Origin: an uncultured Gammaproteobacteria bacterium
Lineage (GTDB): Bacteria > Pseudomonadota > Gammaproteobacteria > CAWJPQ01
Length of the DNA stretch: 64,000 nt
Assembly: GCA_963844825.1 (NCBI GenBank)
Contig: CAWJPQ010000002.1
Coordinates: 202,322-266,321 of the forward strand
Direction of reading: 5' to 3'
Of the stretch, positions 8,131 through 38,570 are shown piece by piece (position 1 is the first letter of the stretch; each line of letters opens with the position of its first letter). The position numbers and the translations under genes were made by a program. The notes below the pieces were generated by a model. It worked only from the letters and a program-made list of their open reading frames with translations, did not search any database and had not been told where the DNA came from.

Positions 8131-8134
8131 AGCG

Positions 8135-8233: not shown

Positions 8234-8236
8234 CGC

Positions 8237-9658: not shown

Positions 9659-9687
9659 CGTTCACTCCTCGGTGTGGTAGCAGGGCG

Positions 9688-12164: not shown

Positions 12165-12169
12165 ACGCC

Positions 12170-14483: not shown

Positions 14484-14603
14484 GTCCGTACCCCGCAAGG
14501 CCGCATTGGGCGTTCGTATCGTGTTGCGGCCGCCGTAAGGAATCCAGCCGCGTCGGAAGACGCAGCACAACTGCCCAGTATAGCAGGTGGGGACGCCCGG
14601 ATC

Positions 14604-18600: not shown

Positions 18601-19216
18601 GCTCGTGCACCCGCGCGTCGTCGATCATCGCCCGGATGTGGGCGTCGCTAACCAGGGTCAGGGTGTTGATCTCGTGGGAGGTGCGGAACCCGTCGAAGAA
18701 ATGGAGAAAGGGCACCCGGGTGCCCAGGGTGGCGGCCTGGGCGATCAGCGCCGAATCGTGGGCCTCCTGCACGGAGGCCGATGCCAGCATGGCGAAGCCG
18801 GTGGTGCGCACGGCCATCACATCGGAGTGATCGCCGAAGATCGACAGGGCCTGGGTGGCGACCGAGCGCGCGGCGACGTGAAAGACGCTGGAGCTGAGCT
18901 CGCCGGCGATCTTGAACATGTTGGGGATCATCAACAGCAGGCCCTGGGAAGCCGTGAAGGTCGTCGTCAGGGCGCCCCCCTGGAGAGACCCATGCACCGC
19001 GCCGGCGGCCCCGCCCTCGCTCTGCATCTCCTGGATGACCGGCACGTTGCCCCAGATGTTGGTGACGCCCGCGACCGTCCACTCGTCGGCGAGCTCGGCC
19101 ATGGGCGAGGCCGGCGTGATAGGATAGATCGCGCAGACCTCGTTGACCCGGTAGGCGATGTGGGCCACGGCCGTGTTGCCGTCCATGGTGGCGACCTGTC
19201 CGTTCATCTCACTCAT
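15614..19216 (-). CDS. nifJ: Pyruvate:ferredoxin (flavodoxin) oxidoreductase, single-polypeptide NifJ/YdbK type
   Basis: About 1200 aa from ATG 19216. It starts MDGNTAVAHIAYRVNEVCAIYPITPASPMAE. It has two ferredoxin-type CxxCxxCxxxCP motifs (CIQCGQCSFVCP, CTGCGLCIEACP) and the TPP region GGDGWAYDIGYGGLDH. Confidence 0.9.
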   Translation of the reverse strand: MSEMNGQVATMDGNTAVAHIAYRVNEVCAIYPITPASPMAELADEWTVAGVTNIWGNVPVIQEMQSEGGAAGAVHGSLQGGALTTTFTASQGLLLMIPNMFKIAGELSSSVFHVAARSVATQALSIFGDHSDVMAVRTTGFAMLASASVQEAHDSALIAQAATLGTRVPFLHFFDGFRTSHEINTLTLVSDAHIRAMIDDARVHEHRLRALNPEHPFIRGTAQNPDTFFQGREAVNRFYAAVPDIVQAAMDDFAGLTGRQYRLFDYDGPDDAERVVVLMGSGAETARETAAALRAGGEKVGVVQVRLYRPFSAPHFLAALPQSCRAVAVLDRTKEPGAGGEPLYLDVVECLARAFSSGQRATLPKIIGGRYGLSSKDFTPAMAKAVFDELKKSEPRHGFTVGINDDVTHTSLEIEPDYCIEPDDAVRAVFYGLGADGTVGANKNSAKIIAGQPGLHAQAYFVYDSHKSGAQTVSHLRFGPRPIRSPYLIESANFVGCHQFHFLERLDVLRLAGHGAVFLLNSPHGPDEVWDHLPRSVQRQIIDKRLKFFVIDATRVAREVGLKTRTNTVLQTCFFAISRVLPRDEAIEQIKVSIRKTYGRKGEELVRRNFKAVDETLSQLHEVTVPLDATSTFDRAPPVPDSAPEFVRQVTAEMFRGLGDRIPVSLMPEDGTFPSGTAMWEKRNVADQVPVWRPDLCIQCGQCSFVCPHSVIRGRYYDEERLTEAPPSFKSAPINARGYPGVNFSLQFYVEDCTGCGLCIEACPAHSPVESGVKAINLEPKAPLVEAERANIAFFEGLPVNDRARVDFENVRGVQFLEPLFEFSGACAGCGETPYLKLLSQLFGDRAMVANATGCSSIYGGNLPVTPWSKDREGRGPAWSNSLFEDNAEFGLGFRLAADKHLDLAAARLKSLSSELGGERVDAILNAPQVRESEIRAQRVRVAELKTRLLELAEGNETARDLLTVVDHLVRRSVWIVGGDGWAYDIGYGGLDHVLASGRDVNCLVLDTEVYSNTGGQASKATPLGAIAKFAAAGKRVPRKDLALQAVAYGNVYVAQVAMGANPQQTLQAFREAEAYQGPSLILAYSHCIAHGFDLRYGMKQQDLATASGYWPLFRYSPTMRGIGENPFRLDSPRPTIPLKDYAYNELRYRALSLTRPADAEALLRQAQAGVKDKYRSYEQLASLDGGPAPGRPDRGGNDS

Positions 19217-20849
19217 CCCCGCCGGGCTCGGCCACCATCTCGATGGCGTGACAGGGACAGGCCTCGAAGCACACCGCGCAGCCTGTGCACTTGTCATAGT
19301 CATAGCGATAGCGCCGGCCGGGCCCGAGCTTGACGATGGCCTCCTCCGGGCAGGCGGCATAGCAGTTGTCGCACTCGAAGCAGTTGCCGCAGGACAGGCA
19401 GCGCCGGGACTCGAAGCGCGCCTCCTGTTCGCTCAGGCCGCCGACAATCTCCTCGAAGCCGCGCAGCCGCTCGGCGACGGACAGGGTCTTCTGCGGGCTG
19501 GACTCGGCATCACTGTAGACGGGCAGACGCATCATGTCGAAGGTCACCAGCGGGTGCTTCTCGTCCCGCTCGAAGGTTTCGCCCCGCAGCCACGCATCGA
19601 TATGCCGCGCCGCCCGTTTGCCGTGCCCCACCGAGGCGGTGACCGAGCGCTCGCCGGACACCAGGTCGCCGCCGGCGAACACGCCGGGGCAACCGGTCAT
19701 CATGTCGGGGCCGACCTTGACCACCCCGTCCGCCCCGATCTCGACGCCCGGCACCTGGTTGAGAAAGGCGCTGTCGGTCTCCTGGCCCACCGCCAACACT
19801 ACCGCGTCGGCGTCGAGGGTCTCGAGCCGGCCCGTCGGCCGGGGCTGTCCGTTCTCGTCGAGCTCCATGGTCTCGACGGTGAGCTGCGACCCGGCGATCC
19901 CGCGGATCGTGCTGAGCCACTTGACCTTCACGCCCTCCTCCCGGGCCTCGTCGATCTCGAAGGCATGGGCCGGCATGTGGGTCCGGTCGCGGCGATAGAC
20001 GATGAGCGCCTCCTCGGCACCCAGGCGCCGAGCCGTGCGGGCCGCATCCATGGCCGTGTCGCCGCCCCCGTAGACCACCACCCGGCGCCCCAGGCGCGGC
20101 GGCTCGCCGCCCGGCACCTCGTGCAGGAGGGACACGGCGTCGAGCACCCGGGCGGCGTCGCGCGCGGGGATATCCACATGCTTGCCCACCCCGGCACCGA
20201 TCGCGACGAACACCGCGTCGAAGCCGCCGGCATCCTTCTCGCCAAGCAGGTCCCGGACCTTGTGGTTGGTGACGATCTTCACGCCCATGGCCTCGATGCG
20301 CCCGATCTCGCGCATCAGGTCCTCCCGCGGCAGCCGGTAGGCCGGAATGCCGAAGTGCATCATGCCGCCGGCCAGCGGTCCCGCGTCGTGGATCTCGACG
20401 GTATGGCCGAGACGGGCCAGGTGATAGGCGGCCGACAGCCCGCTCGGCCCGGCGCCGACCACCAGCACGCGCTTGCCGGTGGGCGCCTTCTCGATCTTCA
20501 GGGGCCAGTCTTCCCGGGCGGCCATGTCCCCCAGAAAGCGCTCGACGGCGTGGATGCCCACCGCCGCGTCGAGTTCACCGCGGTTACAGGCCGTCTCGCA
20601 GGGGTGATAGCAGACCCGACCGTGCACCGCCGGCAGCGGGTTATCGCGCACCAGGGTCTCCCAGGCCCGGCGGTACTTGCCCGCCTGTGCCAGCTCGAGC
20701 CAGGCCTGGATGTTCTCCCCGGCGGGGCAGGCGTTGTTGCAGGGGGGGAGCAGATCCACGTAGACGGGGCGCCTCACGCGCACGGCCCCGGCGCCCTTCT
20801 CCCGGGTCAGGTCAACCACCGGCGTCATGTCCCGGCGCATGGCACACAT
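19209..20849 (-). CDS. GltD-like NAD(P)H-dependent oxidoreductase with a C-terminal 2x[4Fe-4S] ferredoxin domain
   Basis: N-terminal Fe-S Cys region (CNNACPAG...CYHPCETAC), dinucleotide fold VLVVGAGPSGLSAAYHL, and C-terminal CLSCGNCFECDNCYAACP and CTGCAVCFEACP. Confidence 0.8.
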   Translation of the reverse strand: MCAMRRDMTPVVDLTREKGAGAVRVRRPVYVDLLPPCNNACPAGENIQAWLELAQAGKYRRAWETLVRDNPLPAVHGRVCYHPCETACNRGELDAAVGIHAVERFLGDMAAREDWPLKIEKAPTGKRVLVVGAGPSGLSAAYHLARLGHTVEIHDAGPLAGGMMHFGIPAYRLPREDLMREIGRIEAMGVKIVTNHKVRDLLGEKDAGGFDAVFVAIGAGVGKHVDIPARDAARVLDAVSLLHEVPGGEPPRLGRRVVVYGGGDTAMDAARTARRLGAEEALIVYRRDRTHMPAHAFEIDEAREEGVKVKWLSTIRGIAGSQLTVETMELDENGQPRPTGRLETLDADAVVLAVGQETDSAFLNQVPGVEIGADGVVKVGPDMMTGCPGVFAGGDLVSGERSVTASVGHGKRAARHIDAWLRGETFERDEKHPLVTFDMMRLPVYSDAESSPQKTLSVAERLRGFEEIVGGLSEQEARFESRRCLSCGNCFECDNCYAACPEEAIVKLGPGRRYRYDYDKCTGCAVCFEACPCHAIEMVAEPGGDE

Positions 20850-21037
20850 CAGTCCGTCAATCTCCGTGCGGTCGTCACTGTACCCGGTTCCCCGCGCCCC
20901 TTGATTGCGATCACCGGCGGCTGCGCCGATGATGCATCACTGTGAATGGATGCTGCTTCATTGTCGACGGTAGAAGTCAACATAGCGAGTCTTATAATCG
21001 ATTGCAATCCTGCCGCCCCCCTTCGATTTAGCATTTA

Positions 21038-23667: not shown

Positions 23668-23671
<4 letters not shown>

Positions 23672-24045
23672 GATTGCCTCTTGGTCCAACCCGCAGAACG
23701 AGGGTCATGGCGGTGTCGCTTGTTCTGGCAGGACTGAGCCCCTTGCTTGTGGGTTGTGACCGGGCGGGTTCCGGCCATCATATGATGGGGGGCGGCATGA
23801 TGAGTCAAATGCCGCTCGGCAATGGCAATCAGGTTTTGCCGGAACAGCAGTCGGCCGGGGCACGGTTGTTTCGAACTAATTGTGCTCAGTGCCATGCGCT
23901 TCCCGCACTGACAGCGCACACCGCGCAGGACTGGCCTCAGGTCGTGGCCCGGATGAAACAGCATATGGTGACACAGGGCAGGACTGTGCCGGATCGCGAA
24001 CAGCTTGAGAACTTAATAGAGTACCTGCAGCGGCATGCGGGGTGA
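23668..24045 (+). CDS. Small lipoprotein-type c cytochrome with a Met/His-rich segment (copper-resistance associated)
   Basis: Lipobox LLVGC, then [12 protein letters not shown] and a single CAQCH motif. It overlaps the copA stop by 4 nt. The start may be the internal ATG (MAVSLVLAG). Confidence 0.6.
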
Positions 24046-24783: not shown

Positions 24784-26806
24784 TCAGAACAGGCCGAACA
24801 GGCGCTTGCCGGGCTTGGGGTGGCTGTCCAGCAGTTTCACCAGGTCCTTGCGCCCCAGGGCCTCGGCGAGGGAGCGGGCCTGCTCGCGCTTGTCGTTGCG
24901 GATATCCGGATCGGCGCCGGCATCCAGCAGCGCCCGTGCCGCCTCCACGTGACCGGCGGCCACGGCCAGGAGCAGTGCGGTGTTGCCGACCGCATTGCGG
25001 GCATTGATGTCCGCCCTGGCGGCCAGGAGCCGGCGGATGACCTCGGCATGGCCCTGGTCCGCCGCGAGCATCAGGGGGGTGTTGCCGCTGTCGGTGCGCC
25101 GGCCGGCGTTCGCGCCATGGTGGAGCAGCGCCTCCACAACCTGGGCGCTGCCTTGAAAAGCGGCGCGGGCCAGGGGCGTCACTCCGTCCCGGTCGGGGCT
25201 GTCGAGGGCGGCGCCATGGCGAAGGAGCACCGCCACCCGAGCCATGCGGCCGGCGTCGGCGGCGTACCATAGGGGGGTGCGCCCCACCCGGTCCCTGGCA
25301 TTGACCCCGGCGCCGCGCTCGAGCAGGGCCTGCAACAGCCCCGGTGTCCCCCTCTGGGCCGCCCAGACCAGGGGGCTCGCCCCATCGCGGGCGGCGATGC
25401 GGGCATCGGCACCGGCGCCGAGCAGCGCCCGGGCGGCCGCCTCGTGGCCCTCGCGCACACTGATCATCAAAGCCGTCTCCCCGTCGTCGCGGCGGGTGTT
25501 CACCTTCGCCCCGGCCCGCACTAAGGCGCGGATGGTCCCGGCATGGTCGTTTTGCGCGGCCCACATGAGGGGCGTCATGCCGTTGGACTGGCGGGCGTTG
25601 ACCTGGGCGCCCGCCGCCGCCAGCCGGGCCACGATCTTTGCGTAGCCCTGCATCGCCGCGCGGCTCAAGGCGGTATGGCCGTCCGCATCACGGAAGTTCA
25701 CATCGGCGCCGGCGGCGAGCAGGGCCCCCACCGCCTCGGCCTGGCCCCGCCATGCGGCCACCATCAGGGCGGACCAGCCCTTGTAGGCGGCAATGGTCCC
25801 GTCGCCGCCCCGGGCCATGGCCGTGATAGCGCTCAGGGGCACCTTTTTTTCAGTCCCCGCCGGGCGGGCGGCGGGGGCGGCGCCGTGGGCCTTCAATGCG
25901 GCAACCAGCAGAGGCCGGTCCTGGTCCATCGCCACGTCCATGGCGGTCCAGCCCTTCTTATTCTTGATGTCCACAGCGGCGCGGCGCGCCAGCAGGGCCT
26001 GCGCCAGCGCCCGGTTGCCCTTCATGACGGCGATGATCAAAGGGGTGTTGCCGTTGGCGTCCCGGACATCGATGGCGGCCCCGGCCCCGAGCAGGGCGTC
26101 GACAACCGCCTCGTGCTCTTCGTTGACGGCGGTAAGCAGCGCATCATCACCGTAGCGGTCCTTGGCGCGATAGTCGGCCCCGTGGTCCAGCAGCAGCTTG
26201 ACCATCGCTTCGTCAGCCCGGCGGGCAGCCGCCATCAGCGGGGTACGGCCATAACGGTCCGCGGCATTGACCGGGGCATGGCGGGCCAGCAGGCGGCGTA
26301 CCGTGTCGCTGTCGCCCTGCTCCACCGCCCAGCGCAGCTGCGTCTGCAAATCAGGCGCCGCGCCGCGGTCCGACGCGGGCGGCCCATCATCGGCCAGGCG
26401 CTTGAGCTTGGCCCGGGCCATGGAATGGCCGGCGGCGGCGGCGCGCCGGTACCACGCCCGGGCCTGCTCGGCGTCGGCCCGGGTCCCCCAGCCGTGCTCG
26501 TACATCACGCCCAGGTTGTACTCGGCCTTGGCATTGCCTTGGCGGGCCGCCCGCTGCAGCCAGTAAAAGGCCCGCGCATGGTCCTTGGGCACGCCCCGGC
26601 CGGCGCGGTACAGGGCCGCCAGCTGATACTGGGCCTCGGCGTCCCCACGCTCGGCCAGCGGCTTCAATAACCGCGCCGCCCGGTCATAGTCCCTGAGGCG
26701 GGTGGCGGCCTCCACCTGGTCCATCGCCTGGCTGCCGGCATGGGCAACGGGCACCAAGAGTGAGCAGGACAAGGACGGCCAGGAGCAGGGAGGCGGCGGA
26801 TTTCAT
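24784..26806 (-). CDS. Secreted Sel1-repeat plus ankyrin-repeat protein; one frameshift in the signal peptide as sequenced
   Basis: Sel1 repeats (AEAQYQLAALYRAGRGVPKD, AKAEYNLGVMYEHGWG) are followed by more than 12 ankyrin repeats (GRTPLMAAA...LLLDHGAD). ATG 26806 encodes MKSAASLLLAVLVLLTL in a frame offset by one. Removing one base near 26754 restores ...LVPVAHA|GSQA. Confidence 0.8.
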
Positions 26807-26810: not shown

Positions 26811-28127
26811 TCACGCGGTCCCGAACTTGGTTTCCACTTCAATCCCGATCGCCTTTAAAAACGGCGTCGGCAGGATGCCGCCGGCACACACGATGACCGC
26901 GTCGTTGGCCACCTCCAGATCCTTGCCGTCCTGGGCCAGGACCACCCGGTCCGCACCGACCTCTCGCACCTCGGAGCTCAACAGGACCTGCAGGCGCCCG
27001 GCACGCCGGGCCGCTTCCACCGCCTGGCGGTTCTTCTCCTTGGCGCGGCCGAAGGCGGCGCTGCGATAGGACAGGGTGACATGGGTGCCCGGCTGCTCGG
27101 CGATACTGACCGCCGCCTCCAGGGCGCTGTCGCCGCCGCCCACCACCAGTACGCGCCGATCCCGATACTGGGCGGGATCGATGAGGCGGTACACCACCTT
27201 CGATTGGTCCTCCCCGGGCACGCCCAGGGTCCGGGGCGTGCCGCGGCGGCCGATGGCCAGGAGCACGGCCCGCGCGGTATAGCGCCCGCGGGGGGTGGCG
27301 ACCTCGAAACCGGCATCGGTCCTGGCAATCGATTCGACCCGCTCGTGGTAGTTGATCCGCAGGCCGGTCTGTTGCTCGACGCCCTGCCAGAACGCCAGCA
27401 GGGCCTCCTTGGTGGTCTCGGTCAGCTTCACCTTGCCCACCAGGGGCAGGTGCACCGGCGCGGTCATGACCACTTTGCCCCGCGGGTAGTGGGACACGGT
27501 CCCGCCCAGGGAGTCCTGCTCCAGGGTCACGAAGCTCATTCCGAGTTCCATGGCGGCCAGGGACGCGGCGATGCCGGCGGGTCCGGCACCGACGATCGCC
27601 ACATCCAACACCCCCTCGTCCCGCCGCCCGCCGCCGCTCGCCCGGCGCACCGCCTCCATGGCCTGGCGTCCCTGCTCCACGGCGTTGCGGATCAGTCCCA
27701 TGCCGCCCAGCTCGCCGGCGATGAAGATGCCGGGCACCGAGGTCTCGAAGTTGGGTTTGAGCAGCGGGATATCCACGCCGCGCTTCTCGGTGCCGAAGAC
27801 CAGGGTAATGGCATCCACGGGGCAGGCCGCCCGGCAGGCCCCGTGACCGATGCAGTGGCTGGGATTGATCAAGGCCGCCTTGGTGCCGATCAGCCCCAGG
27901 ACCTTGTCCTCCGGGCAGGCGCTGGCGCACGCCCCGCAGCCGATGCAGCGCATGGGATCGATCAGCGGGTGCAGGGAGACCGGGTCGTTCAAGCCGGCGC
28001 TTTCGGCGGCCTCCTGAAGGGCACGGTTGGCCCGCTGCTTCTTAGACCAGCCCCGGATATAGGCGAGCCAGATCAGCACCAGGACACCGATATAAACAAC
28101 CGTTTGCAGATCCGCGACGTTCATCAT
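26811..28127 (-). CDS. Membrane-anchored 2x[4Fe-4S] ferredoxin domain fused to an FAD/NAD(P)-dependent (thioredoxin-reductase-like) oxidoreductase
   Basis: N-terminal TM helix VVYIGVLVLIWLAYI. Fe-S motifs CIGCGACASACP and CIGHGACRAACP. Two dinucleotide folds, VAIVGAGPAGIAASLAA and VLVVGGGDSALEAA. Confidence 0.75.
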   Translation of the reverse strand: MMNVADLQTVVYIGVLVLIWLAYIRGWSKKQRANRALQEAAESAGLNDPVSLHPLIDPMRCIGCGACASACPEDKVLGLIGTKAALINPSHCIGHGACRAACPVDAITLVFGTEKRGVDIPLLKPNFETSVPGIFIAGELGGMGLIRNAVEQGRQAMEAVRRASGGGRRDEGVLDVAIVGAGPAGIAASLAAMELGMSFVTLEQDSLGGTVSHYPRGKVVMTAPVHLPLVGKVKLTETTKEALLAFWQGVEQQTGLRINYHERVESIARTDAGFEVATPRGRYTARAVLLAIGRRGTPRTLGVPGEDQSKVVYRLIDPAQYRDRRVLVVGGGDSALEAAVSIAEQPGTHVTLSYRSAAFGRAKEKNRQAVEAARRAGRLQVLLSSEVREVGADRVVLAQDGKDLEVANDAVIVCAGGILPTPFLKAIGIEVETKFGTA

Positions 28128-28367
28128 GTCAGGGCCCGACTATAGCCCGGGTCTTTGGCCGACAACGTGAACTCCATCAAACAACTCCTCTCGGTGTTCG
28201 GCTTTAATCTACCCACACCCCCATACCCTCCCCCGCTGCCGTAGATGCCCCCTCATGAAGGCATGCCCCTTGCCGCTAATGAGACAATAGTTTACTAATA
28301 TGGGCAATATTTCCCAAATTTTTAATTTTTTTCTATATAATGGGCCCCTAATCAAAGGTACGCGGGT

Positions 28368-29306
28368 ATGGCAAATCAAATACAAACAACCATCGCCGCC
28401 GCCAACGCCGCCGATCCGGGGGTCGGCGGCAGCACCGCGGCCCCGGCGCCGCCCCCCAGGCGTCGGCCGCTCCGCCACCTGGGCACCCTGCTGTTTTCGG
28501 CCATGGTCCTGACGCTCCTGTGGGCGGGCTGGGAAAATCGCGACTATCACTACCTCACCGCCAAGAACGGCCTGGGCTATGCCCTGGGCATTACCGGCGG
28601 GGTATTGATGCTGGTGCTGCTCCTGTACCCGGCGCGCAAGCGCGTGCGCTTCATGCGCCGCCTGGGGCCGGTGAAGTACTGGTTCAAGAGCCACATGATG
28701 CTGGGCGTGCTCGGCCCCACCTGCATCCTGTATCACGCCGATTTCCACCTGGGGTCGCTGAACAGCAACATCGCCCTGATCTGCATGCTCATGGTGGCCG
28801 GCAGCGGGCTGGTGGGACGCTTCATCTACACCAAGATCCACTACGGCCTGTACGGGGGCCGGGCAACCCTGGAACAGCTGCGCCGGGACAAGGACGAGAC
28901 GGGGGGCCAGTTAGCGACACTGCTGGCCCTGGCCCCCCACCTGGGCGAGCGCCTGCAGGCCTATGAAAACGCCGCCCTGGCGCCCTCCCGGGGCATGATC
29001 CACGGCCTGGTCAAGCGCCTGACCCTCGGCCTGCGCGCCCGCTGGACGCGCTTCACGCTGCTGCGCCGCCTGCGCGGGGCACTGCGCCGCCAGCGGCGCG
29101 ACGCCGGCCTCGACACCGCCACGATGCGCCGTCATTACCGCAGCGCACGCCGTTACCTGGACACCTACCTGGCCACCATCCAGCGCATCACCGTGTTCAG
29201 CTTCTACGACCGGCTGTTCTCCATGTGGCACGTCCTGCACCTGCCCCTGTTCCTGATGATGCTGGTGTCGGGGATCATCCACGTGATTGCGGTGCACATG
29301 TACTGA
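28368..29306 (+). CDS. Polytopic inner-membrane protein with conserved intramembrane His residues (possible b-heme/quinone-side module), first gene of the cytochrome operon
   Basis: 312 aa with several hydrophobic helices carrying His (WFKSHMMLGVLGP, ILYHADFHLGS, MWHVLHLPLFLMMLVSGIIHVIAVH). A perfect TATAAT at 28336-28341 lies 27 nt upstream. The next gene starts 6 nt after the stop. Confidence 0.6.
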   Translation: MANQIQTTIAAANAADPGVGGSTAAPAPPPRRRPLRHLGTLLFSAMVLTLLWAGWENRDYHYLTAKNGLGYALGITGGVLMLVLLLYPARKRVRFMRRLGPVKYWFKSHMMLGVLGPTCILYHADFHLGSLNSNIALICMLMVAGSGLVGRFIYTKIHYGLYGGRATLEQLRRDKDETGGQLATLLALAPHLGERLQAYENAALAPSRGMIHGLVKRLTLGLRARWTRFTLLRRLRGALRRQRRDAGLDTATMRRHYRSARRYLDTYLATIQRITVFSFYDRLFSMWHVLHLPLFLMMLVSGIIHVIAVHMY

Positions 29307-29311
29307 CGGCA

Positions 29312-30880
29312 ATGGGCAGAGCAAGATCAATCTGGCTGATACTGGGGACCGCCCTGATGATATTGAACACACACCCCGCCGCGGCGTTCAGCCTCGAGAC
29401 CCTGATGATGCCCGGCAAGCTCATCCAGGGCCACGCCAAGGTGGAGGCCCAGTGCAAAAAGTGCCACGAGCGGTTCAGCAAGCGCCTGCAGAATCCCCTG
29501 TGCCTGGACTGCCACAAGAAGGTGGCCGCCGATGTGCGCCGCCATCGCGGCTTTCACGGCCGGATCCCCGACATCCAACACACCGAGTGCAAGCGCTGCC
29601 ACACCGAGCACAAGGGGCGCGACGCCGATATCGTGGGACTGGACAAGGAGACCTTTGATCACGGCTCGACGGACTTCGCCCTCAAGGGCGCCCACACAGA
29701 CGTGCCATGCGCCGCCTGCCACAAGCCCGGCCACAAGTACCGGGAGGCCGCCCACCGGTGCAACAGCTGCCACAAGAAGGACGACCCCCACGAGGGGCGC
29801 CTGGGGACGGACTGCGCCAAGTGTCACACGGTTCGGGCATGGCGCAAGGTCGGCTTCGATCATGAAAAGACCGACTTTCCCTTGAAGGGCAAGCACCGCA
29901 AGGTCTCCTGCAAGAGCTGTCACCCCAATCAGCGCTACAAACACGTCCCGACCGATTGCGTCGCCTGCCATAAACTGGAGGACGCCCACGGCGGGCGCTA
30001 CGGCGCCAAGTGCCATACCTGCCACACGGCCAGGGACTGGAAGCACGTGACCTTTGATCACGACCGGGACACCAAGTACAAGCTCAAGGACCGGCACGCC
30101 AAAGTCGCCTGCGACAGCTGCCACAAGGGCCGTCTGTACGAAGACAAGCTGGGCAAAGCGTGTTTCGACTGTCACAGGAACGACGATTATCACAAGGGCC
30201 GCTACGGAAAGAAGTGCCGCACCTGCCACGCGCCCACCCGCTGGTCCAAGGCCCGCTTCGATCATGACCGCCGGACTGATTACCCCCTGCGCGGGCGCCA
30301 CGCGAAGGTGCAATGCCGGTCCTGCCACCGCGGCGACCTCTACAAGGACAAGCTAAAGAGCGAGTGCGTCTCCTGCCACCGCCGCGACGACGTGCATCAC
30401 GGTCAGGAAGGCAAGGTGTGCCGACGCTGCCACACCGAGCAGGGCTGGGGCCACAAGGTGGTGTTCGACCACGACCTGACCCGCTTTCCGCTCATCGGCC
30501 TGCACGCCACGGCGCCGTGCGAGGAGTGCCACCTGTCGTCGGCCTTCAAGGGCGCGCCCCTGGACTGCCACGCCTGCCACCAGGCCGACGACACCCATAA
30601 GGGGCGCCTGGGCCCCGACTGCGGGCGCTGCCACAACCCCAACGGCTGGAACCGGTGGCGCTTCGACCACGACACCCAGACCGATTACAAACTCGACGGC
30701 AAGCACCGCGGCCTGGACTGCAGCGCCTGTCACAAAACGCCGGTCAAGGGCCGCATACGGCTTTCCCGGGAGTGCGTCTCATGCCACCAGCGCGACGATG
30801 TCCATGCCGGGCGTTTCGGCCCGGCCTGTGGCCGCTGTCACGTAACCGATTCTTTCAAGAAGGTAGCATTGAACCATTAA
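29312..30880 (+). CDS. 21-heme c-type cytochrome built from seven triheme c7/c3-like modules
   Basis: Signal peptide after ATG 29312. I count 21 CxxCH motifs. The module FDH..T.F.L.G.H..V.C..CH......C..CH..DD.H.G..G..C..CH recurs. Confidence 0.85.
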   Translation: MGRARSIWLILGTALMILNTHPAAAFSLETLMMPGKLIQGHAKVEAQCKKCHERFSKRLQNPLCLDCHKKVAADVRRHRGFHGRIPDIQHTECKRCHTEHKGRDADIVGLDKETFDHGSTDFALKGAHTDVPCAACHKPGHKYREAAHRCNSCHKKDDPHEGRLGTDCAKCHTVRAWRKVGFDHEKTDFPLKGKHRKVSCKSCHPNQRYKHVPTDCVACHKLEDAHGGRYGAKCHTCHTARDWKHVTFDHDRDTKYKLKDRHAKVACDSCHKGRLYEDKLGKACFDCHRNDDYHKGRYGKKCRTCHAPTRWSKARFDHDRRTDYPLRGRHAKVQCRSCHRGDLYKDKLKSECVSCHRRDDVHHGQEGKVCRRCHTEQGWGHKVVFDHDLTRFPLIGLHATAPCEECHLSSAFKGAPLDCHACHQADDTHKGRLGPDCGRCHNPNGWNRWRFDHDTQTDYKLDGKHRGLDCSACHKTPVKGRIRLSRECVSCHQRDDVHAGRFGPACGRCHVTDSFKKVALNH

Positions 30881-30916
30881 TCAATAGATCAGCAGCGACA
30901 AAAAATAATAACCACA

Positions 30917-32032
30917 ATGAAGACTGACGCATTGATCAATCGGCTCCCGCCGGCGGCGGGCGGCCATGCCCGGCGGCCCCTTGTCCTCAAGGCCGGGGGC
31001 ACGGGAATCGGCACTTGTCTGTTGATCGCCCTGATGCTCCTGGCAGGGGCCTGGGCGAGCACCGGGGCCCAGGCCGCCGTGCCGGGGTTCAGCCGCTTCG
31101 ACCACTTCAGCACCGGCTTTCCCCTGACCGGCTACCACGCCCGGGTGGACTGCGAGCGCTGCCATATCGGCGGCGGGTTCCGCAACACCCCGCGCCAGTG
31201 CGCCGGCTGTCATACCCGGGGCAGCCGCGTCAGCGCCTCGGCCAAGCCCGTCAATCACATACCCTCAACCCAGAATTGCGGCGATTGTCATACCACCAAC
31301 ACCTGGCGCGTCGGCCGACGCATGAGTCACGTGGGCGTGATCGGCACCTGCTCGCGCTGTCACAACGGGGTGGTGGCGGAAGGCAAGCCGCCCGGGCACC
31401 TGCCGAGCACCGATACCTGCGAGCAGTGCCATACCATCGTCAGCTGGTCCAATACCCATTTCGATCACCGCAACGTGGCACCGGGCAGCTGCGTGACCTG
31501 CCATAACGGATCCCGCGCGAAGGGCAAATCGGCCCGCCACATCCAAAGCACCAATACCTGCGACGACTGCCACAACACCCGCCGATGGGCCGTGGGGCGG
31601 GTCAATCACGATGCCGTCCTGGGCACCTGCTACAGCTGCCACAACAACCAGATTGCACGGGGCAAGCCCGGAAATCACCCCGCGAGCTCCAATGACTGTC
31701 AGCAATGCCACAACACCAGCGACTGGGCGGCGGCCGGCTTCGACCACCGGGGCGTGGCGGCGGGCACCTGCGTCAATTGCCACAACGGATCCCGCGCCAC
31801 AGGCAAGTCCGCTTCGCACATCCAGTCCACCGACACCTGCGACGCCTGCCATACCACCCAGCGCTGGCGGCCGGTCAGCCAGGTGAATCACGCCGCGGTG
31901 CTGGGCAGTTGCTACAGCTGCCACAACAATCAGATCGCACGGGGCAAGCCCGGAGATCACCCGCGCACCAGCAATAACTGCCAAGAGTGCCACAGCACGA
32001 ACAGTTGGCATGCGGAAGGAGGCCGCGACTGA
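30917..32032 (+). CDS. 13-heme c-type cytochrome (paralogue of the following giant cytochrome)
   Basis: Signal peptide and 13 CxxCH motifs. The N-terminal FDHFSTGFPLTGYHARVDCERCH block is followed by three four-heme modules of the C..CHNG...GK...H type. Confidence 0.85.
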   Translation: MKTDALINRLPPAAGGHARRPLVLKAGGTGIGTCLLIALMLLAGAWASTGAQAAVPGFSRFDHFSTGFPLTGYHARVDCERCHIGGGFRNTPRQCAGCHTRGSRVSASAKPVNHIPSTQNCGDCHTTNTWRVGRRMSHVGVIGTCSRCHNGVVAEGKPPGHLPSTDTCEQCHTIVSWSNTHFDHRNVAPGSCVTCHNGSRAKGKSARHIQSTNTCDDCHNTRRWAVGRVNHDAVLGTCYSCHNNQIARGKPGNHPASSNDCQQCHNTSDWAAAGFDHRGVAAGTCVNCHNGSRATGKSASHIQSTDTCDACHTTQRWRPVSQVNHAAVLGSCYSCHNNQIARGKPGDHPRTSNNCQECHSTNSWHAEGGRD

Positions 32033-34764
32033 TGAACAACCATAATCCCGGTTTTATTACACACCCGCGCGGCCCGGCCCTTTGGCTGCTCGCCTGCCTG
32101 GCGCTGCTCGCATTGGCCGCAGCCGGTACCGCCCGAGGGGCGGTGACCACCAGCTTCGACCACTTCACCACCGGCTTTCCCCTGACCGGCGCCCATACCC
32201 GCGTGGACTGCGAAAACTGCCACGTGGGCGGCGTATTCAGAAACACCCCGACCCAGTGCGCCGCGTGTCATACGCACGGCGGGCGTATCGGTGCTTCGGC
32301 CAAACCCGTGGATCACATGCCCTCCACCGACGCCTGTGCCTATTGCCACACCACCCGGGCCTGGCGGCCGGTAGCACGGGTGGATCACACCGCGGTCATC
32401 GGGACCTGCGTGCGGTGTCACAACGGCACGCTCGCCCCCGGGAAACCGCCCCATCACATCGCCAGCAACAACAACTGCGATGACTGCCATACCACCAGCA
32501 ACTGGCAGGGGGCGGTCTTCGACCACAGCGGCGTCGCCGCCGGGCACCTGCGCCACCTGTCACAACGGCAGCAAGGCCACCGGCAAGCCGGCGACGCACA
32601 TCAGACCACCAACACCTGCGATGCCTGTCACAGCACCCGCGCTGGAATCCGGTGACCCGGGTGGATCACATGGCGGTGCTGGGCACCTGCTTCAGCTGCC
32701 ACAACACGGTGGCACCGGCAAGCCCGCCAACCACATCGCCAGCGCCAACACCTGCGACGACTGCCACACCACCAACACCTGGCAGGGAGCGGTATTCGAC
32801 CACAGCAACGTGGCGCCGGGCACCTGCGCCACCTGCCACAACGGCACCAAGGCCACCGGCAAGCCGGCGACGCACATCCAGACCACCAACACCTGCGATG
32901 CCTGTCACAGCACCCGCGCTGGAACCCGGCCACCCGGGTGGATCACACCGAGGTGCTGGGTACCTGCTACAGCTGCCACAACAACCGGCGGCACCCGGCA
33001 AGCCCGCCAATCACATCGCCAGCGCCAACACCTGCGACGACTGCCACACCACGACTTCGTGGTCCAATGCGGTCTTCGACCACAGCGGCGTCGCGCCCGG
33101 CACCTGCGCCACCTGCCACAACGGCACCAAGGCCACCGGCAAGCCGGCGGGCCACATCAGCAGCACCAATACCTGCGATGCCTGCCACAGCACCCGCACG
33201 TGGAACCCGACCACCCGGGTCGACCACACCGCGGTGCTCGGCACCTGCTACAGCTGCCACAACAACTCGGTGGCACCGGGCAAACCCGCCAATCACATCG
33301 CCAGCGCCAACACCTGCGATGACTGCCACACCACGACTTCGTGGGCCAATGCGGTCTTCGACCACAGTGGCGTCGCGGCCGGCACCTGCGCTACATGTCA
33401 CAACGGCACCAAGGCCACCGGCAAGCCGGCGGGCCACATCAGCAGCACCAATACCTGCGATGCCTGCCACAGCACCCGCACGTGGAACCCCACCACCCGG
33501 GTCGATCACACCGCGGTGCTCGGCACCTGCTACAGCTGCCACAACAACTCGGTGGCACCGGGCAAACCCGCCAATCACATCGCCAGCGCCAACACCTGCG
33601 ATGACTGCCACACCACGACTTCGTGGGCCAATGCGGTCTTCGACCACAGCGGCGTGGCGGCCGGCACCTGCGCCACCTGTCACAACGGCACCAAGGCCAC
33701 CGGCAAGCCGGCGGGCCACATCAGCAGCACCAATACCTGCGATGCCTGCCACAGCACCCGCACGTGGAACCCCACCACCCGGGTCGATCACACCGCGGTG
33801 CTGGGCACCTGCTACAGCTGCCACAACAACTCGGTGGCACCGGGCAAGCCCGCCAATCACATCGCCAGCGCCAACACCTGCGACGACTGCCACACTACGA
33901 CTTCGTGGTCCAATGCGGTCTTCGACCACAGCGGCGTCGCGGCCGGCACCTGCGCCACCTGCCACAACGGCACCAAGGCCACCGGCAAGCCGGCGACGCC
34001 ACATCAGCAGCACCAACACCTGCGATGCCTGCCACAGCACCCGCACGTGGAATCCCGTGACAAAAGTGGATCACCTGGAAGTGCTCGGCACCTGCTACAG
34101 CTGCCACAACGGCACCGTGGCCACCGGCAAACCAACCAATCATATTGCCAGCAACAACAACTGCGACGACTGCCACACCACCACCACCTGGGCCAATGCG
34201 GTCTTCGACCACAGCGGCGTCGCTGCCGGCACCTGCGCCACCTGCCACAACGGCACCAAGGCCACCGGCAAGCCGGCGGGCCACATCAGCAGCACCAATA
34301 CCTGCGATGCCTGCCACAGCACCCGTACCTGGAACCCGACTACGCGGGTCGATCACACCGCGGTGCTGGGCACCTGCTACAGCTGCCACAACAACTCGGT
34401 GGCACCGGGCAAGCCGGCGAACCACATTGCCAGCAGCAACTCCTGCGGCGACTGCCACAGCACCTCCACCTGGGCGAACGCCTCGTTCAACCACAGCGGT
34501 GTAGCCGCCGGCACCTGTGTGACCTGCCACAACGGCTCCACGGCCACCGGCAAGCCCAACAACCATATATCCACCACCGATACCTGCGACGCCTGCCACA
34601 GCACCCAGACATGGAACCCCGTGGTGCGGGTCGATCACTCGGCGGTGATGGGAACTTGCTACAGCTGCCACAACGGCACCATCGCCCGGGGAAAGCCTCG
34701 CGATCATCCCCGCACCAGTAACGACTGCCAGCGATGCCACAGCACCAGGACATGGGATCGATGA
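32032..34764 (+). CDS. Giant multiheme c-type cytochrome, about 910 aa and about 37 hemes if the frames are joined; about seven single-base frameshifts as sequenced
   Basis: ATG 32032 has a TGATG overlap and a GGAAGGAGG RBS, and a signal peptide follows. Every frame segment continues the same CxxCH module pattern. Indels sit at homopolymers, for example an extra G at 32542-32544, a missing C near 32602 and an extra C near 33998. They sum to -3, so the first and last frames coincide. Confidence 0.8.
32470..34740 (+). repeat. Eight tandem 282-bp coding repeats (94 aa, four hemes each) inside the giant cytochrome gene
   Basis: The unit is TCDDCH-FDH-TCATCHNG-GKPAGH-TCDACH-VDH-TCYSCHNN-GKPANH. 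The copies at about 33040-33900 are nearly identical at DNA level: the ORF track gives near-identical out-of-frame peptides starting at 33341 and 33623, exactly 282 nt apart. Confidence 0.9.
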
Positions 34765-35279
34765 AAGTGACCTACAACAGCACAACGACGAGACCGGCGT
34801 CTCGCCGTCGCCTGCCCTGGTACGGTCTTATTACCGGCCTGCTGCTGATGGCGGCTAATTCCAGCGCCGAGCCGGCGCGCAACCGTATCCTGGATCAGGT
34901 GCATGTGACCGAGCAGGCACACTGCGCCGTCATCGAAGTGGGCTTCACGCTGCCGATTCGCTATGTGCGCCACTTTCCCTATGACGAGGGGAACGAGCTG
35001 CGCATCAAGCTGGATCCCATCTCGGTCAGCGCCCTGGACCGACCCGCCCTGGCCATGCGCGAATCCCTGAGGCCGGCCCGCGGCGGTGACTTACCCCTCT
35101 ATGAAGTGGTCTACGAGGGCGACATGGAGGGGGGGCCCTTTCTGACCCTGGAGTTTCGCCGCGCGGTGGCTTTCACGGTGCGCCAGGGACCGGCATTTCG
35201 CAGCGTGGTGATCACCGTATCCCTCAGCAGGAAATCGCCCGGCCGTACCTGCCCCTTGGAAAAGGCACGGGCGCGGTAA
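34761..35279 (+). CDS. Secreted hypothetical protein (172 aa) of the cytochrome operon
   Basis: ATGA overlap with the cytochrome stop. Signal peptide LPWYGLITGLLLMAANSSA. I recognise no motif. The next gene starts 2 nt after the stop. Confidence 0.6.
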   Translation: MKVTYNSTTTRPASRRRLPWYGLITGLLLMAANSSAEPARNRILDQVHVTEQAHCAVIEVGFTLPIRYVRHFPYDEGNELRIKLDPISVSALDRPALAMRESLRPARGGDLPLYEVVYEGDMEGGPFLTLEFRRAVAFTVRQGPAFRSVVITVSLSRKSPGRTCPLEKARAR

Positions 35280-35280
35280 G

Positions 35281-37471
35281 ATGACACAGGCTATCCCATG
35301 GACCACCTCAATGGGTAAGGACGGGCATTGCCTCGGCGAGGTCGCGGCGCGCACTGCAGGCGATTGGCGGCGGATACCGGCCGGACGCTGGCTGCGCTGT
35401 CTCGGTGACAAAGTGCTCCTGCTGCTGTGCCTGGCAAGCTGCGCCGCTAGCGCCCATCTGCTCATCGTCGATGCCAAGGCCGACGAGGTGAAGGGCAGAC
35501 GGTCCACGCTCAACGCCGGGCTCTACGCCATCAACCTGGAGTCGTCCCTAACCCCGCCGGCGGTCGACAAGATTCCCGCCAACAAGCTGCTGCGCCGGTA
35601 CCGGCTCTACACGCAACTGTACAAAAAGGACGGCCGGGTCTGGCACCGCCTGCGCCTGGGATTTTTCGACACGCGCGCCGCGGCCAAGCAGGTACAAGCG
35701 GCCCTGCGGTCCCCCTACCCCCGCTCGTGGGTCACCAAGGTCAGCGCCGCCGAGCACGATGCCTCGGCGGCCACGGCCATTGCCCTGCCCGGCGCTGGTG
35801 CGGCGCCGGCGCCTCAGCCGGTCAAAGTCGCCGCGGCGGGCCGGTCCCAGCAACGACAGTGCGCGCCTGGCCTCCTTGATGGAGCGCGCGCGCCGGGCCA
35901 TGGCCGAAGGCAATTACGACTTTGCCGTCAAGGCCTACACGGAGGTGCTGCAGTATCCCCACAACCAGTACAGCCAGGCGGCCCAGGAGTTTCTCGGGCT
36001 CGCCCGCGAGCGCAGGGGTCAGGTGGCCCATGCCAAGGCCGAGTACGAAACGTACCTCAAGCTCTATCCCAAGGGCGAAGGGGCGGACCGGGTGCGCCAG
36101 CGCCTGGCGGGGCTGCTCACCGCCCGCAAGCCGCCCCCGAAGAAGCTGCGCCGGGCGGCGCCGACGGCGCATGAGGCCCCCGTGTGGGACACCTTCGGCA
36201 GCTTTTCCCAATACTACCGCCGGGATGTCAGCGATGCGGGCAATACGGGCCAGCAGGTCAATCTGTCCATGCTGTCGTCCTATCTGGACGTGATGACCCG
36301 CCGGACAGGCTCCGAGGTGGAGGTGCGCACGCGCTTTACCGGCGGCTATGACTGGGATTTCCTGGATTCGCGCTTCAATCAGACCCGTATCACCTCTCTT
36401 TACGCTGCCATGAGCGACCGACGCCTGGGGATCGGCGGCCGCCTGGGTCGCCAGTCCCTGAGCACGGGCGGTGTGCTGGGGCGCTTCGACGGGCTGTCGC
36501 TGGGCTACCAGCTGACCCCGCGGCTGAAACTCAACGCCGTGGCCGGATTCCCAGTGGAGATCAACACCCTGGAACAGATCTCCACCGGCAAACGGTTTTA
36601 CGGCGCCAGCGTCGATGTCGGGACCTTCGCTAACGGGGTCAACGTCAATACCTACTTCATCCAGCAAACGGCCCACGGGATACTCGACCGGCGTGCGGTG
36701 GGCAGCGAGCTGCGCTACTCCAAGGCAAACCGCTCCCTGTTCGCCCTGGTGGATTACGATATTTACTTCAACACCCTGAATACGTTGTTCGCCTTCGGCA
36801 ATTGGATATTCGCCGACGACACCAGCGTCAATGTTACCATTGACCTGCGCAAGAGCCCGGTTCTGACCACCAGCAATGCCCTGCAGGGTCAGACCGTGGC
36901 ATCAGTCAACGATCTTCTGAGCCAGTTCAGCGAGCGGCAGATCAAGCAGCTCGCCAAGGACCGCACCGCCGACAGCCGAACCTTCACCGTCGGCGTGACC
37001 CGGCCAATCAACCGCATGCTCCAGGTTAGCGGAAACGTGACCATGACCCACCTGAGCGGCACGCCCGCCTCCGGCGGCGTCGCCGCCATCGATGGGACCG
37101 GTAACGACGTCTACTACACCATGCAGCTCATCGGCAGCAGCCTGATCAAAAAGGGCGACCTGGCGATCATCGGCCTGAACTACGCCGACGCCAGCACCGC
37201 CAAGACCGCGAGCGTGACGTTGAACACCCGCTACCCGGTGAATCACACCTGGCGCATCAATCCGCGTTTCAGGGTGGACCTGCGCCGCTTCACCCGGGAC
37301 AACAGCCACGAACTGCTCCTCGCCCCGTCGCTGCGGATCAACTATCGTATCCTCCGGGTGGGCCAGATCGAGCTCGAAGGGGGCGGCCTGTGGTCGACCC
37401 TGCATGTGACCGGCGATACGCAAAATACCACCGGGTACTACATCAATGCCGGGTATCGGTTGGACTTTTGA
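35281..37471 (+). CDS. Outer-membrane beta-barrel protein with N-terminal SPOR-like and TPR modules; one frameshift near 35840 as sequenced
   Basis: ORF 35281-36174 is meaningful only up to ...APAPQPVKVAAAG. It includes the SPOR-like block YAINLESS...VWHRLRLGFFDTRAAAKQVQAAL. ORF 35759-37471 is meaningful from ...SNDSARLASLMERARRAMAEGNYDFAVKAY, which is TPR. About 430 aa of alternating beta-strand-like sequence follow, ending YYINAGYRLDF (OMP C-terminal aromatic signature). Confidence 0.7.
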
Positions 37472-38087: not shown

Positions 38088-38570
38088 TCAATACCGGCCG
38101 CCGACCTTGGAGACGTAGTTAACCAGTTCCCGGCTTTCATGATTCATGCGCATCAGGTTCGCGTGGGTGATGCGGAACAGGGCCCGCATGACCTTGTAGA
38201 CGATGCGCGGATGGGGCGCCAGCAGCGCTTCGAAATCGTCGGGCTCCAGGGTGTATACCGTGGCGTTGCCCACCGCGCGCAGGGTTGCCTTGCGCGGGGC
38301 GTGGTCAACAAAGGCCCGAGTGCCTGCGCACTCGCCCTGGGTCATGGTATAGACCTGGACTTCCTTGCCCGCCACGAAGTTGGAAACAGCGAGCCTGCCG
38401 TCGATGAGGACAAAGAGGGTGTCGTCTTCCTGTCCCTCGCTGACCAGCAACTCCCCGTCTGACAGGCGCATCACGCCCATAATGCCGGCCAGGACCCGGC
38501 ATTCATCCTCTGCAAGCTCTTCGCCTATGCAGGAGTTGCAGATCGATTTGTAATCCAGTGTGTCATTCAT
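38088..38570 (-). CDS. Cyclic-nucleotide-binding domain protein (stand-alone cNMP domain)
   Basis: 160 aa. GELLVSEGQEDDTLFVLIDGRLAV...GECAGTRAFVDHAPRKATLRAV fits the cNMP-binding beta-roll pattern. There is no DNA-binding HTH. Confidence 0.7.
   Translation of the reverse strand: MNDTLDYKSICNSCIGEELAEDECRVLAGIMGVMRLSDGELLVSEGQEDDTLFVLIDGRLAVSNFVAGKEVQVYTMTQGECAGTRAFVDHAPRKATLRAVGNATVYTLEPDDFEALLAPHPRIVYKVMRALFRITHANLMRMNHESRELVNYVSKVGGRY

Follow-up and report, generated by a model that had tools for sequence, protein, structure and literature searches.

A PCC3-type multiheme cytochrome cluster and its conserved partner genes in an uncultured gammaproteobacterium

The PCC3 gene clusters were first described from genomes by He et al. 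(2017, Front Microbiol 8:1584; PMC5566968), who listed them from Alpha-, Beta- and Gammaproteobacteria. According to that description, their inner-membrane protein (IMP) comprises about 300 amino acids (aa) and five transmembrane (TM) helices and carries, as does the IMP of the PCC4 clusters, the motif WX3HX13H on TM3 and TM5 and the motif SGXXG on TM4 (PMC5566968). The periplasmic cytochrome is built of repeats and holds 21–27 hemes with a median of 21, while the 'extracellular' cytochrome holds 10–85 hemes with a median of 34, is rich in Thr, Ser, Ala and Gly and has a low number of residues per heme (PMC5566968). PCC3 clusters with a second repeat cytochrome are also already in the literature. 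In the present study, a locus of this type was analysed in a 64,000-nt stretch of contig CAWJPQ010000002.1 from an uncultured gammaproteobacterium; the whole stretch is called the window here, and all coordinates are window positions unless another locus is named. A first-pass annotation, made from the sequence, had read six plus-strand genes at 28368–37471 as a trans-envelope electron conduit for metal, mineral or electrode redox chemistry, of a new or at least uncharacterised kind and resembling the PCC3 clusters of Gallionellaceae. The resemblance to PCC3 was borne out, since all PCC3 features testable here are present, including two WX3HX13H motifs and one SGXXG motif in the IMP. The novelty was not: the locus belongs, as an unexceptional member, to a family for which a scan of one genome per species (best identity 54%) gave at least 525 carrier species in several phyla, a count that is a lower bound and depends on two peptide patterns. 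The attribution to Gallionellaceae was likewise too narrow in view of the range listed by He et al.

The published PCC3 features can be followed component by component. The IMP of the window matches the PCC3 IMP in size, in number of TM helices, in the SGXXG motif (SGLVG at residue 146) and in both WX3HX13H motifs, located at residue 105 (WFKSH-X13-H) and residue 287 (WHVLH-X13-H). The published medians of 21 and 34 hemes are matched by cytochromes of 21 and 37 hemes, to which a 13-heme paralogue of the 37-heme protein is added here, and the PCC3 example from the Riftia symbiont, with its seven repeats of 66 aa and its 39 hemes, agrees with the window cytochromes as well (PMC5566968). The gene order is that of Slit_1446–1449 in Sideroxydans lithotrophicus ES-1, namely IMP, periplasmic cytochrome, extracellular cytochrome and porin. 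The reference clusters also include those of Leptothrix cholodnii SP-6 and the Riftia endosymbiont, and in the features compared no difference in kind separates them from the window cluster. Homologues of the barrel protein of the window were found in an Amphritea metagenome-assembled genome (MAG; 38% identity), in a Solemya symbiont, and in MAGs of Sedimenticola and of Sedimenticolaceae, the family of the Riftia symbiont. Amphritea is itself named among the PCC3 carriers by He et al. (PMC5566968). By the features published for PCC3 (motifs, heme counts and gene order), the cluster is a PCC3 member, and the trans-envelope architecture that had been proposed for it, consisting of an inner-membrane protein, a periplasm-length multiheme cytochrome, very large repeat cytochromes and an outer-membrane barrel, is real.

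Three multiheme cytochromes with about 71 hemes had been claimed, and the CXXCH counts of 21, 13 and 37 do add up to 71, the last figure being reached only after stitching of the reading frame. The assignment of module types was also upheld. In the 21-heme cytochrome, a c7-like triheme module about 66 aa long is repeated seven times (Pfam Cytochrome_C7, 1.4e-23); a PDB sequence search with this protein gave no significant match, and it is a candidate for the wire that spans the periplasm. The 13- and 37-heme cytochromes follow a different plan, with 1+3x4 and 1+9x4 hemes in four-heme modules of 93–94 aa, which are encoded by a 282-bp tandem repeat present in 8.2 copies. Across the three proteins 24.6–28.5 aa are spent per heme, with enough additional His residues for bis-His ligation of every heme, and the 37-heme protein stands at 24.6 aa per heme with a T+S+A+G fraction of 0.43. 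The Pfam models Cytochrome_C7 and Paired_CXXCH and MtrC/MtrF domain models were matched by the repeat cytochromes, the nanowire_3heme model TIGR04257 only below its threshold. Both repeat cytochromes start with a Sec signal peptide of the ordinary kind, and neither has a lipobox. In the relatives, the repeat cytochrome contains 8–74 hemes, and the length of the wire seems to evolve through repeat expansion and contraction. Pairs of repeat cytochromes recur elsewhere, for instance with 24 and 70 or with 12 and 50 hemes. It was also observed that the first and last modules of the 13- and 37-heme proteins of the window are nearly alike and that the two proteins differ only in their internal 94-aa four-heme modules, three in one and nine in the other.

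The first gene had been described as encoding a polytopic protein with His in its TM helices, and this was confirmed in the sequence of the IMP, which has about five TM helices in its 312 aa. Seven His residues (H109, H123, H158, H288, H291, H305 and H310) are the same in all of 50 homologues, which share no conserved Cys. The AF2 model (pLDDT 86; this and the other AF2 models were judged from summary output) has a helix layout that fits the motifs; in it, TM4 and TM5 are separated by some 120 aa that form a helical domain on the cytoplasmic side. Searches with the IMP matched no Pfam or NCBIfam model even at E<=10, and among PDB folds the best match had an E of 0.7, with cytochrome b561 at an E of 1.7 and a TM-score of 0.19. 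A ferric-reductase, cytochrome b561 or Ni-hydrogenase cytochrome b fold was considered and rejected on these searches, as neither a Pfam or NCBIfam match at E<=10 nor a Foldseek match was obtained. From its motifs, the IMP is a candidate di-heme-b transmembrane electron carrier. The family is large, with 3263 clusters at 50% identity, and its public annotation is uneven: several homologues that consist of the IMP only (P0150, P0194, P0400, P0179, P0184, P0515) are named 'pyridine nucleotide-disulfide oxidoreductase' or 'transcriptional regulator', which are evidently propagated misannotations, and the former name may have been borrowed from the adjoining flavoprotein gene. Longer IMP homologues of 450–690 aa (P0373, P0377, P0368, P0188) have N-terminal extensions that contain TPR, in one case a SPOR-like domain, or unassigned sequence, and none of them contains the flavoprotein.

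The last gene of the cluster had been predicted to end in a barrel of the outer-membrane protein (OMP) type, and an AF2 model built on 50 homologues (mean pLDDT 90.7) places five TPR-like helices before 22 beta-strands. The refuting outcome named by the first-pass annotation, a C-terminal domain not predicted as a barrel, thus did not occur. The designation as a porin needs correction, since this is a SPOR-TPR-barrel protein and not a plain porin. From its N-terminus it consists of a signal peptide, a SPOR domain (Pfam, 1.7e-6), BamD/YbgF-like TPR repeats (TPR matched in Pfam; BamD-like at 1e-8, below the cut-off) and the 22-strand beta-barrel with a helical insert, ending in YRLDF. In Foldseek only generic OMP barrels were matched, with the ushers FimD and PapC first, at TM-scores of 0.4 or less, and with PelBC and AlgE also among the matches. 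The family has more than 1,700 homologues, among them the intact, full-length P0243 (731 aa, 94% identity), and in them the motif KSPxLTTSNA, bordering the internal helical insert, is the most conserved. In some of them AMIN replaces SPOR, and peptidoglycan anchoring is therefore taken as a conserved property of the barrel protein.

The small secreted protein encoded directly upstream gave no match in Pfam or NCBIfam. It was found, either free-standing or fused, in 67 of 84 related loci, and the alignment of 49 free-standing copies defines the motifs FxFPVRYxxHFP and YEGDxxGGPYLTL. In the Solemya symbiont, whose barrel protein has 805 aa, residues 4–150 of that protein are homologous to it (hhalign probability 98.8%, E 1.2e-16), and some genomes encode the small protein as an N-terminal fusion to the barrel protein. 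Such a Rosetta-stone fusion indicates that the small protein and the barrel protein most likely work as one unit. That the small protein might itself be an AMIN domain was considered and rejected (hhalign against an AMIN-bearing homologue, E 0.75). At locus L057 (CP070738.1), positions 9353–12268 encode an orphan barrel protein of 971 aa with a fused small-protein domain, and cytochrome and IMP genes are absent within 9 kb upstream.

With regard to gene layout, all six plus-strand reading frames were recovered where they had been reported, and so were the junctions between them: a stop at 29306 followed by a start at 29312, TGATG at 32032, ATGA at 34761, and a stop at 35279 followed by a start at 35281. 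Hydrophobic, signal-like N-terminal segments were also seen on all five non-membrane products, as claimed. The scan of the window for promoters and terminators found no plus-strand terminator-like site inside the cluster, and its one promoter-like site lies 3' of the cluster, with counts not exceeding those in shuffled sequence; tRNA and Rfam scans of the window gave no matches. From the abutting and overlapping genes and the lack of internal plus-strand terminator-like sites, the six genes form a candidate operon. The limits of the conserved unit nevertheless had to be redrawn, since the divergent genes for an iron-sulfur (Fe-S) flavoprotein and for a Sel1/ankyrin protein are conserved alongside; as judged from gene neighbourhoods, the unit is one of eight genes, not six (Table 1).

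The conservation of this unit was followed in 41 IMP-bearing loci from Gammaproteobacteria, Nitrospirota, Thermodesulfobacteriota and others. The order of IMP, periplasmic cytochrome, repeat cytochrome or cytochromes (one or two per locus) and barrel is invariable, the cytochrome next to the IMP has exactly 21 hemes in 35 loci, and the small protein, free or fused, precedes the barrel in 38. The flavoprotein and ankyrin genes accompany 35 of the 41 loci, and four of the six exceptions do not have enough upstream DNA, which makes 35 of 37 assessable loci. Three loci carry both genes co-oriented with the IMP gene and upstream of it. The wider set of carriers comprises Thiohalobacter, Thiogranum, Sedimenticola, Chromatiaceae, Ectothiorhodospiraceae and Amphritea, together with Nitrospirota, Thermodesulfobacteriota, Myxococcales, Binatia and Nitrospinaceae MAGs and the Solemya symbiont.

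The flavoprotein is the best-conserved protein of the set, with 57–77% identity across related loci. It begins with an N-terminal TM helix (hydrophobic residues 1–28) followed by basic residues, and combines a ferredoxin domain of the 2x[4Fe-4S] type (CxxCxxCxxxCP and CxxHxxCxxxCP) with a thioredoxin-reductase-like FAD/NAD(P)H domain (Pfam Pyr_redox_3, 9.5e-42, and Fer4 families). The NCBIfam model YpdA was matched at 1.6e-46, below its cut-off, and the nearest PDB sequences are YpdA/Bdr and ferredoxin-NADP reductases of the TrxR type. Nearly all of the 34 sequences compared retain the Fe-S motifs, including the His of the second one, as well as GAGPAG and VVGGGDSALEAA. The Sel1/ankyrin protein has about 15 ankyrin repeats (Pfam Ank_2, 7e-104; Sel1, 4.5e-20), and a homologue occurs in most related loci at 36–63% identity. 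Its relatives have a classical signal peptide, MKSAASLLLAVLVLLPLVPFAHA/GSQ, and the window reads the same peptide from the ATG at 26806 up to a slip in the reading frame; from this signal we infer that the protein is periplasmic. Neither the flavoprotein and ankyrin pair, nor the SPOR/AMIN and TPR domains, nor the small protein, nor the intergenic elements described below are mentioned in He et al. (2017) or in the literature on PCC3 and multiheme cytochromes that was searched, and in that literature no multiheme conduit was found to be linked with ankyrin, SPOR, TPR or thioredoxin-reductase partners.

Between the flavoprotein and IMP genes lies the palindrome GGGCAATATTTCCC (28302–28315), and an alignment with three relatives revealed a conserved block resembling a CRP/FNR site, CAACGTGAACTCCATCAAACAAC (28163–28185). 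Of 32 loci, 13 have a GGGA-W6-TCCC-type palindrome in the intergenic region (background 0.043 per kb; expectation below 1), and nine have GTGA-N6-TCAC boxes, in several of them 19 nt from the palindrome. The GGGA-W6-TCCC palindrome is a conserved, candidate operator-like element. As a separate observation, a gene just downstream of the barrel gene (38088–38570, minus strand) encodes a protein with a cyclic-nucleotide-binding domain, a candidate regulator of the CRP/FNR type; the 95%-identical relative (L086) also has this gene at that position, but more distant loci lack it.

Several described systems share part of this design. The PCC4 clusters have an IMP with the same motifs, and in those of subgroup II the IMP gene is immediately preceded by one for an Fe-S protein, the two having once been annotated as one gene; their cytochromes, however, are three small periplasmic ones, a giant repeat cytochrome being absent, and their IMPs show no overall sequence homology to those of PCC3 (PMC5566968). 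With MtrCAB, MtoAB and PioAB the locus has in common the logic of a multiheme cytochrome combined with an outer-membrane barrel. The statement of the first-pass annotation that no component looks like MtrA, MtrB or Cyc2 holds for the latter two: when the two halves of the last gene were scanned with Pfam, SPOR and TPR families were matched and the MtrB/PioB family was not, no MtrB chain is among the top 50 Foldseek matches of the barrel, and the barrel protein lacks the CXXCH that in Cyc2 occurs as a single heme motif N-terminal to the barrel. For MtrA it was too strong, since the DmsE/MtrA decaheme model TIGR03508 was matched at 1.1e-17 and 2.5e-12 (the latter by the 13-heme cytochrome), with 46.8–64.4 bits against a cut-off of 192, and the 13-heme cytochrome matched chain A of PDB 6R2Q, which is MtrA of the MtrCAB complex, at 5.5e-4. 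This likeness to DmsE/MtrA is weak and confined to the level of modules. Moreover, the Mtr system has 10 hemes where 13–37 are present here, its MtrC-type lipoprotein cytochrome is absent here, a dedicated IMP takes the place of CymA, and the barrel differs from the MtrB type in its 22 predicted strands and its additional SPOR and TPR domains. With TIGR03508 below the cut-off, heme counts of 13 and 37 and an unmatched barrel, the sequences place the cluster outside MtrAB/MtoAB/PioAB.

The 21-heme protein recalls the Geobacter GSU1996-type proteins, dodecaheme c7-polymer 'nanowire' proteins of four modules, as both are tandem arrays of c7-like triheme modules (Cytochrome_C7); it differs in its seven modules and in its constant placement in an operon with genes for an IMP and a barrel. 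NOX/FRE and the pair of MsrQ and Fre are alike on paper, given that a cytoplasmic NAD(P)H flavoprotein feeds a membrane protein in which HX13H His pairs hold two stacked b-hemes. However, only the HX13H spacing is common to them and the IMP, the Ferric_reduct model (PF01794) was unmatched at E<=10, the six-helix FRD fold was not matched either, and the NOX dehydrogenase is FNR-like, whereas the flavoprotein of the window is TrxR-like, of the YpdA type, with Fe-S clusters. The exporters PelB, BcsC, PgaA and AlgK/AlgE have, as here, a periplasmic TPR part followed by a C-terminal outer-membrane barrel, but they differ in strand number, and the window protein has SPOR/AMIN, low TM-scores and no polysaccharide synthesis genes nearby. 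The cluster thus lies outside the MtrAB, Cyc2, ferric-reductase-domain and TPR-exporter families, and its mode of action may be like that of the MtrAB and ferric-reductase systems.

Taken together, the components are best read, with moderate confidence, as a heme wire of the PCC3 type that starts at an NAD(P)H-linked flavoprotein, crosses the inner membrane in a di-heme IMP and reaches the cell surface, with outward flow favoured. The flavoprotein, facing the cytoplasm from its single TM anchor, would exchange electrons with NAD(P)H via FAD and two Fe-S clusters, for which it has the domains, and would pass them to the IMP. There, the His pairs H109/H291 and H123/H305 of TM3 and TM5, set by the HX13H spacing, would each hold one b-heme, near either membrane face. 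The 21-heme chain of seven c7-like modules would carry charge across the periplasm, and the MtrA-like 13- and 37-heme cytochromes would take over from there, entering or threading the 22-strand barrel and probably reaching past the surface. The SPOR domain would pin the barrel to peptidoglycan, the TPR domain and the small secreted protein could form a periplasmic platform for docking or assembly, and the periplasmic Sel1/ankyrin protein might act as a scaffold or chaperone for the long cytochromes. Cytoplasmic reducing power would in this way be disposed onto extracellular acceptors. Thermodynamics is the reason for favouring the outward direction, in which electrons leaving NAD(P)H would move downhill and with the membrane potential. 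More tentatively, PCC3 as a whole might be a quinone-independent conduit from the cytoplasmic NAD(P)H/ferredoxin pool to the surface, in which the flavoprotein, as a membrane-anchored fusion of a ferredoxin domain with a TrxR-like domain of the ferredoxin-NADP-reductase type, and a di-heme IMP of novel fold act as a 'split NOX' on a wire of more than 70 hemes, instead of a quinone-linked iron oxidase; this proposal is regarded as less likely than not. Several points weigh against the outward wire. Many carriers are sulfur-oxidising autotrophs, for which electron dumping from NAD(P)H is not obviously useful. Two loci with adequate flanking DNA (L015 and L069) have no flavoprotein and ankyrin pair nearby, the link between flavoprotein and IMP is one of gene neighbourhood only, and no relation of the IMP to ferric reductase/NOX, cytochrome b561 or solved structures is detectable in sequence or fold, its b-hemes being read from motifs alone. 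MtrB has 26 strands, more than the 22 predicted here, and in the model the helical insert of the barrel might plug the lumen. In addition, PCC3 components were still described as 'functionally unverified' as of 2025–2026 (PMC12442390, PMC13386937).

Two candidate links between these proteins were examined and set aside. No Rosetta-stone fusion of flavoprotein and IMP was found in the top 120 flavoprotein homologues, all of about 436 aa, or among the long IMP homologues. A DsbD/CcdA-like thiol route for cytochrome maturation, formed by flavoprotein and IMP, is disfavoured, as the IMP has no conserved Cys and the flavoprotein has none of the CxxC type conserved beyond its Fe-S motifs. At locus L015, cytochrome c maturation genes resembling ccmF/G/H/I (positions 283–4757 of that locus) were observed directly upstream of the IMP gene, at the usual place of the pair.

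The direction of flow is where the outward wire departs from the original PCC3 model (He et al. 2017), in which electrons from Fe(II), minerals or a cathode enter through the surface cytochrome and pass along the 21-heme wire and the IMP to the quinone pool, the flavoprotein being unrelated or peripheral. In favour of this model, Fe(II) oxidisers are where PCC3 was discovered, and Sideroxydans and Leptothrix often carry it; iron-oxidising cells of Sideroxydans CL21 show upregulation of the IMP from one PCC3 copy, and a flavoprotein homologue is annotated from a MAG of Candidatus Tenderia, a cathode-oxidising lineage. On the other hand, both PCC3 clusters of Sideroxydans ES-1 are downregulated on Fe(II) compared with thiosulfate (PMC8788666), and most of the carriers found here are not known Fe oxidisers. 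A quinone-only model also leaves unexplained the nearly universal and highly conserved NAD(P)H-type flavoprotein beside the IMP gene, and by established bioenergetics electrons moving inward would have to be driven uphill, against the membrane potential, to reach NAD(P)+. Inward flow is accordingly regarded as rather unlikely. A second alternative concerns the barrel end of the system, where the SPOR-TPR-barrel protein and the small protein could be an export or assembly machine, similar to an usher or to PelB/BcsC, that moves or polymerises the repeat cytochromes instead of forming a static sheath. The succession of TPR and C-terminal barrel is indeed the architecture of exopolysaccharide exporters, the best Foldseek matches are the FimD/PapC usher pores, with PelBC and AlgE also present, and the most conserved barrel motif, KSPxLTTSNA, borders the helical insert; furthermore, repeat cytochromes with Sec signal peptides and without a lipobox need some export route. 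Yet the TM-scores reach 0.4 at most, with ordinary porins close behind, and neither chaperone-usher nor glycosyltransferase genes occur in the conserved neighbourhood. PelB, BcsC and AlgE have 16–18 strands and ushers 24, and the 22 strands predicted here count against such a machine, which is considered improbable.

The remaining alternative is that the cluster is decaying in this organism, and it depends on how the interrupted reading frames are understood. In the 37-heme gene, the heme-rich frame jumps seven times, at single-base indels near 32545, 32602, 32643, 32717, 32920, 32987 and 33997, which are also seen in a DNA alignment of the modules; the gene was repaired by reading three frames and joining eight in-frame pieces across the seven indels. 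The barrel gene is split by a 1-nt deletion near 35857, and the Sel1/ankyrin gene has a 1-nt frameshift in its signal-peptide region, between 26772 and 26800. An OPT-family transporter gene unrelated to the cluster (12508–14603, minus strand) has two single-base frameshifts as well, its conserved GDNLQDLKAG being found in a third frame, which brings the window to at least 11; from this gene it follows that the assembly has indel errors beyond the cytochrome cluster. Were the nine shifts inside the cluster real mutations, the system would be non-functional here, and their distribution lends this some weight, as nine of at least 11 in the window fall within the cluster (seven in the 37-heme, one in the barrel and one in the ankyrin gene), six of them within 450 bp. 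Nevertheless, restoring single bases leaves no in-frame stop and no lost heme motif, with all CXXCH motifs and distal His residues kept in the stitched 37-heme protein, and the net shift over that gene is zero modulo 3. A short-read-assembled relative with 95–96% DNA identity has uninterrupted frames in both its barrel gene (731 aa) and its ankyrin gene. Polishing is, moreover, expected to fail at the near-identical 282-bp repeats; the short-read contigs of the relative break at repeats on either side, at window 31469 and 34377. Public records identical to the IMP, the flavoprotein and the truncated barrel open reading frame (ORF) of the window are P0121, P0245 and P0244. As the same defect occurs in an unrelated gene and the relative has intact barrel and ankyrin genes, the frameshifts are attributed to assembly: most likely they are consensus errors, concentrated where near-identical repeats defeat polishing. 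Decay is thus very unlikely, and the eight-gene system is probably intact in the organism.

Table 1. Features of the PCC3-type locus, in window positions.
Feature	Positions	Strand	Description
Sel1 + ankyrin protein gene	24784..26806	-	~673 aa; Pfam Ank_2, Sel1
Membrane-anchored iron-sulfur flavoprotein gene	26811..28127	-	438 aa; Pfam Pyr_redox_3 + Fer4
Divergent promoter region	28128..28367		palindrome + CRP/FNR-like block
PCC3-type inner-membrane protein (IMP) gene	28368..29306	+	312 aa; motifs of He et al.
21-heme cytochrome c gene	29312..30880	+	522 aa; 21 CXXCH, Cytochrome_C7
13-heme cytochrome c gene	30917..32032	+	371 aa; 13 CXXCH
37-heme cytochrome c gene	32032..34764	+	909 aa once repaired; 37 CXXCH
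Small secreted protein gene	34761..35279	+	172 aa; family without database model
SPOR-TPR-barrel protein gene	35281..37471	+	729 aa once stitched; ends YRLDF

Other genes of the window were noted in passing. Just beyond the ankyrin gene (23668–24045, plus strand) lies a gene for a small mono-heme class I cytochrome c (Pfam Cytochrome_CBB3, 2.7e-6). At 3019–6386 on the plus strand, two copper-protein-like genes, resembling by eye multicopper oxidase or NirK, flank genes for a di-heme and a mono-heme c-type cytochrome, and an ExbB/ExbD/TonB-like trio precedes them at 819–2828. On the minus strand, at 15614–20936, a pyruvate:ferredoxin oxidoreductase of about 1,200 aa adjoins a GltD-like Fe-S flavoprotein, both recognised by eye, and this pair would suggest a ferredoxin-based, low-potential metabolism of the host. 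At 6500–10100 the GC content falls to 0.52, from about 0.65 in the surroundings; this low-GC island holds three minus-strand ORFs, which include a SIR2-like gene (PADLOC SIR2, 3e-7), apparently split from its N-terminal part at 7759–8130, and a 473-aa protein without family; it may be a defence island.

PCC3 is among the largest predicted bacterial electron conduits, and its carriers include animal symbionts and iron oxidisers. The window itself adds nothing new in kind, and it is the comparison that yields a fuller parts list of PCC3, with the Fe-S flavoprotein, the ankyrin/Sel1 protein, the small protein, the SPOR and TPR domains of the barrel protein and the operator-like palindrome. Both this list and the proposed coupling to NAD(P)H apply to the whole PCC3 family and not to the window in particular. 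If the coupling to NAD(P)H is true, it would change the reading of PCC3 genes in metagenomes, where they are now scored as markers of iron oxidation. If, in addition, the conduit is quinone-independent, it would represent a widespread and so far unrecognised means of electron disposal or exchange in sulfur oxidisers, symbionts, Nitrospirota and Desulfobacterota.

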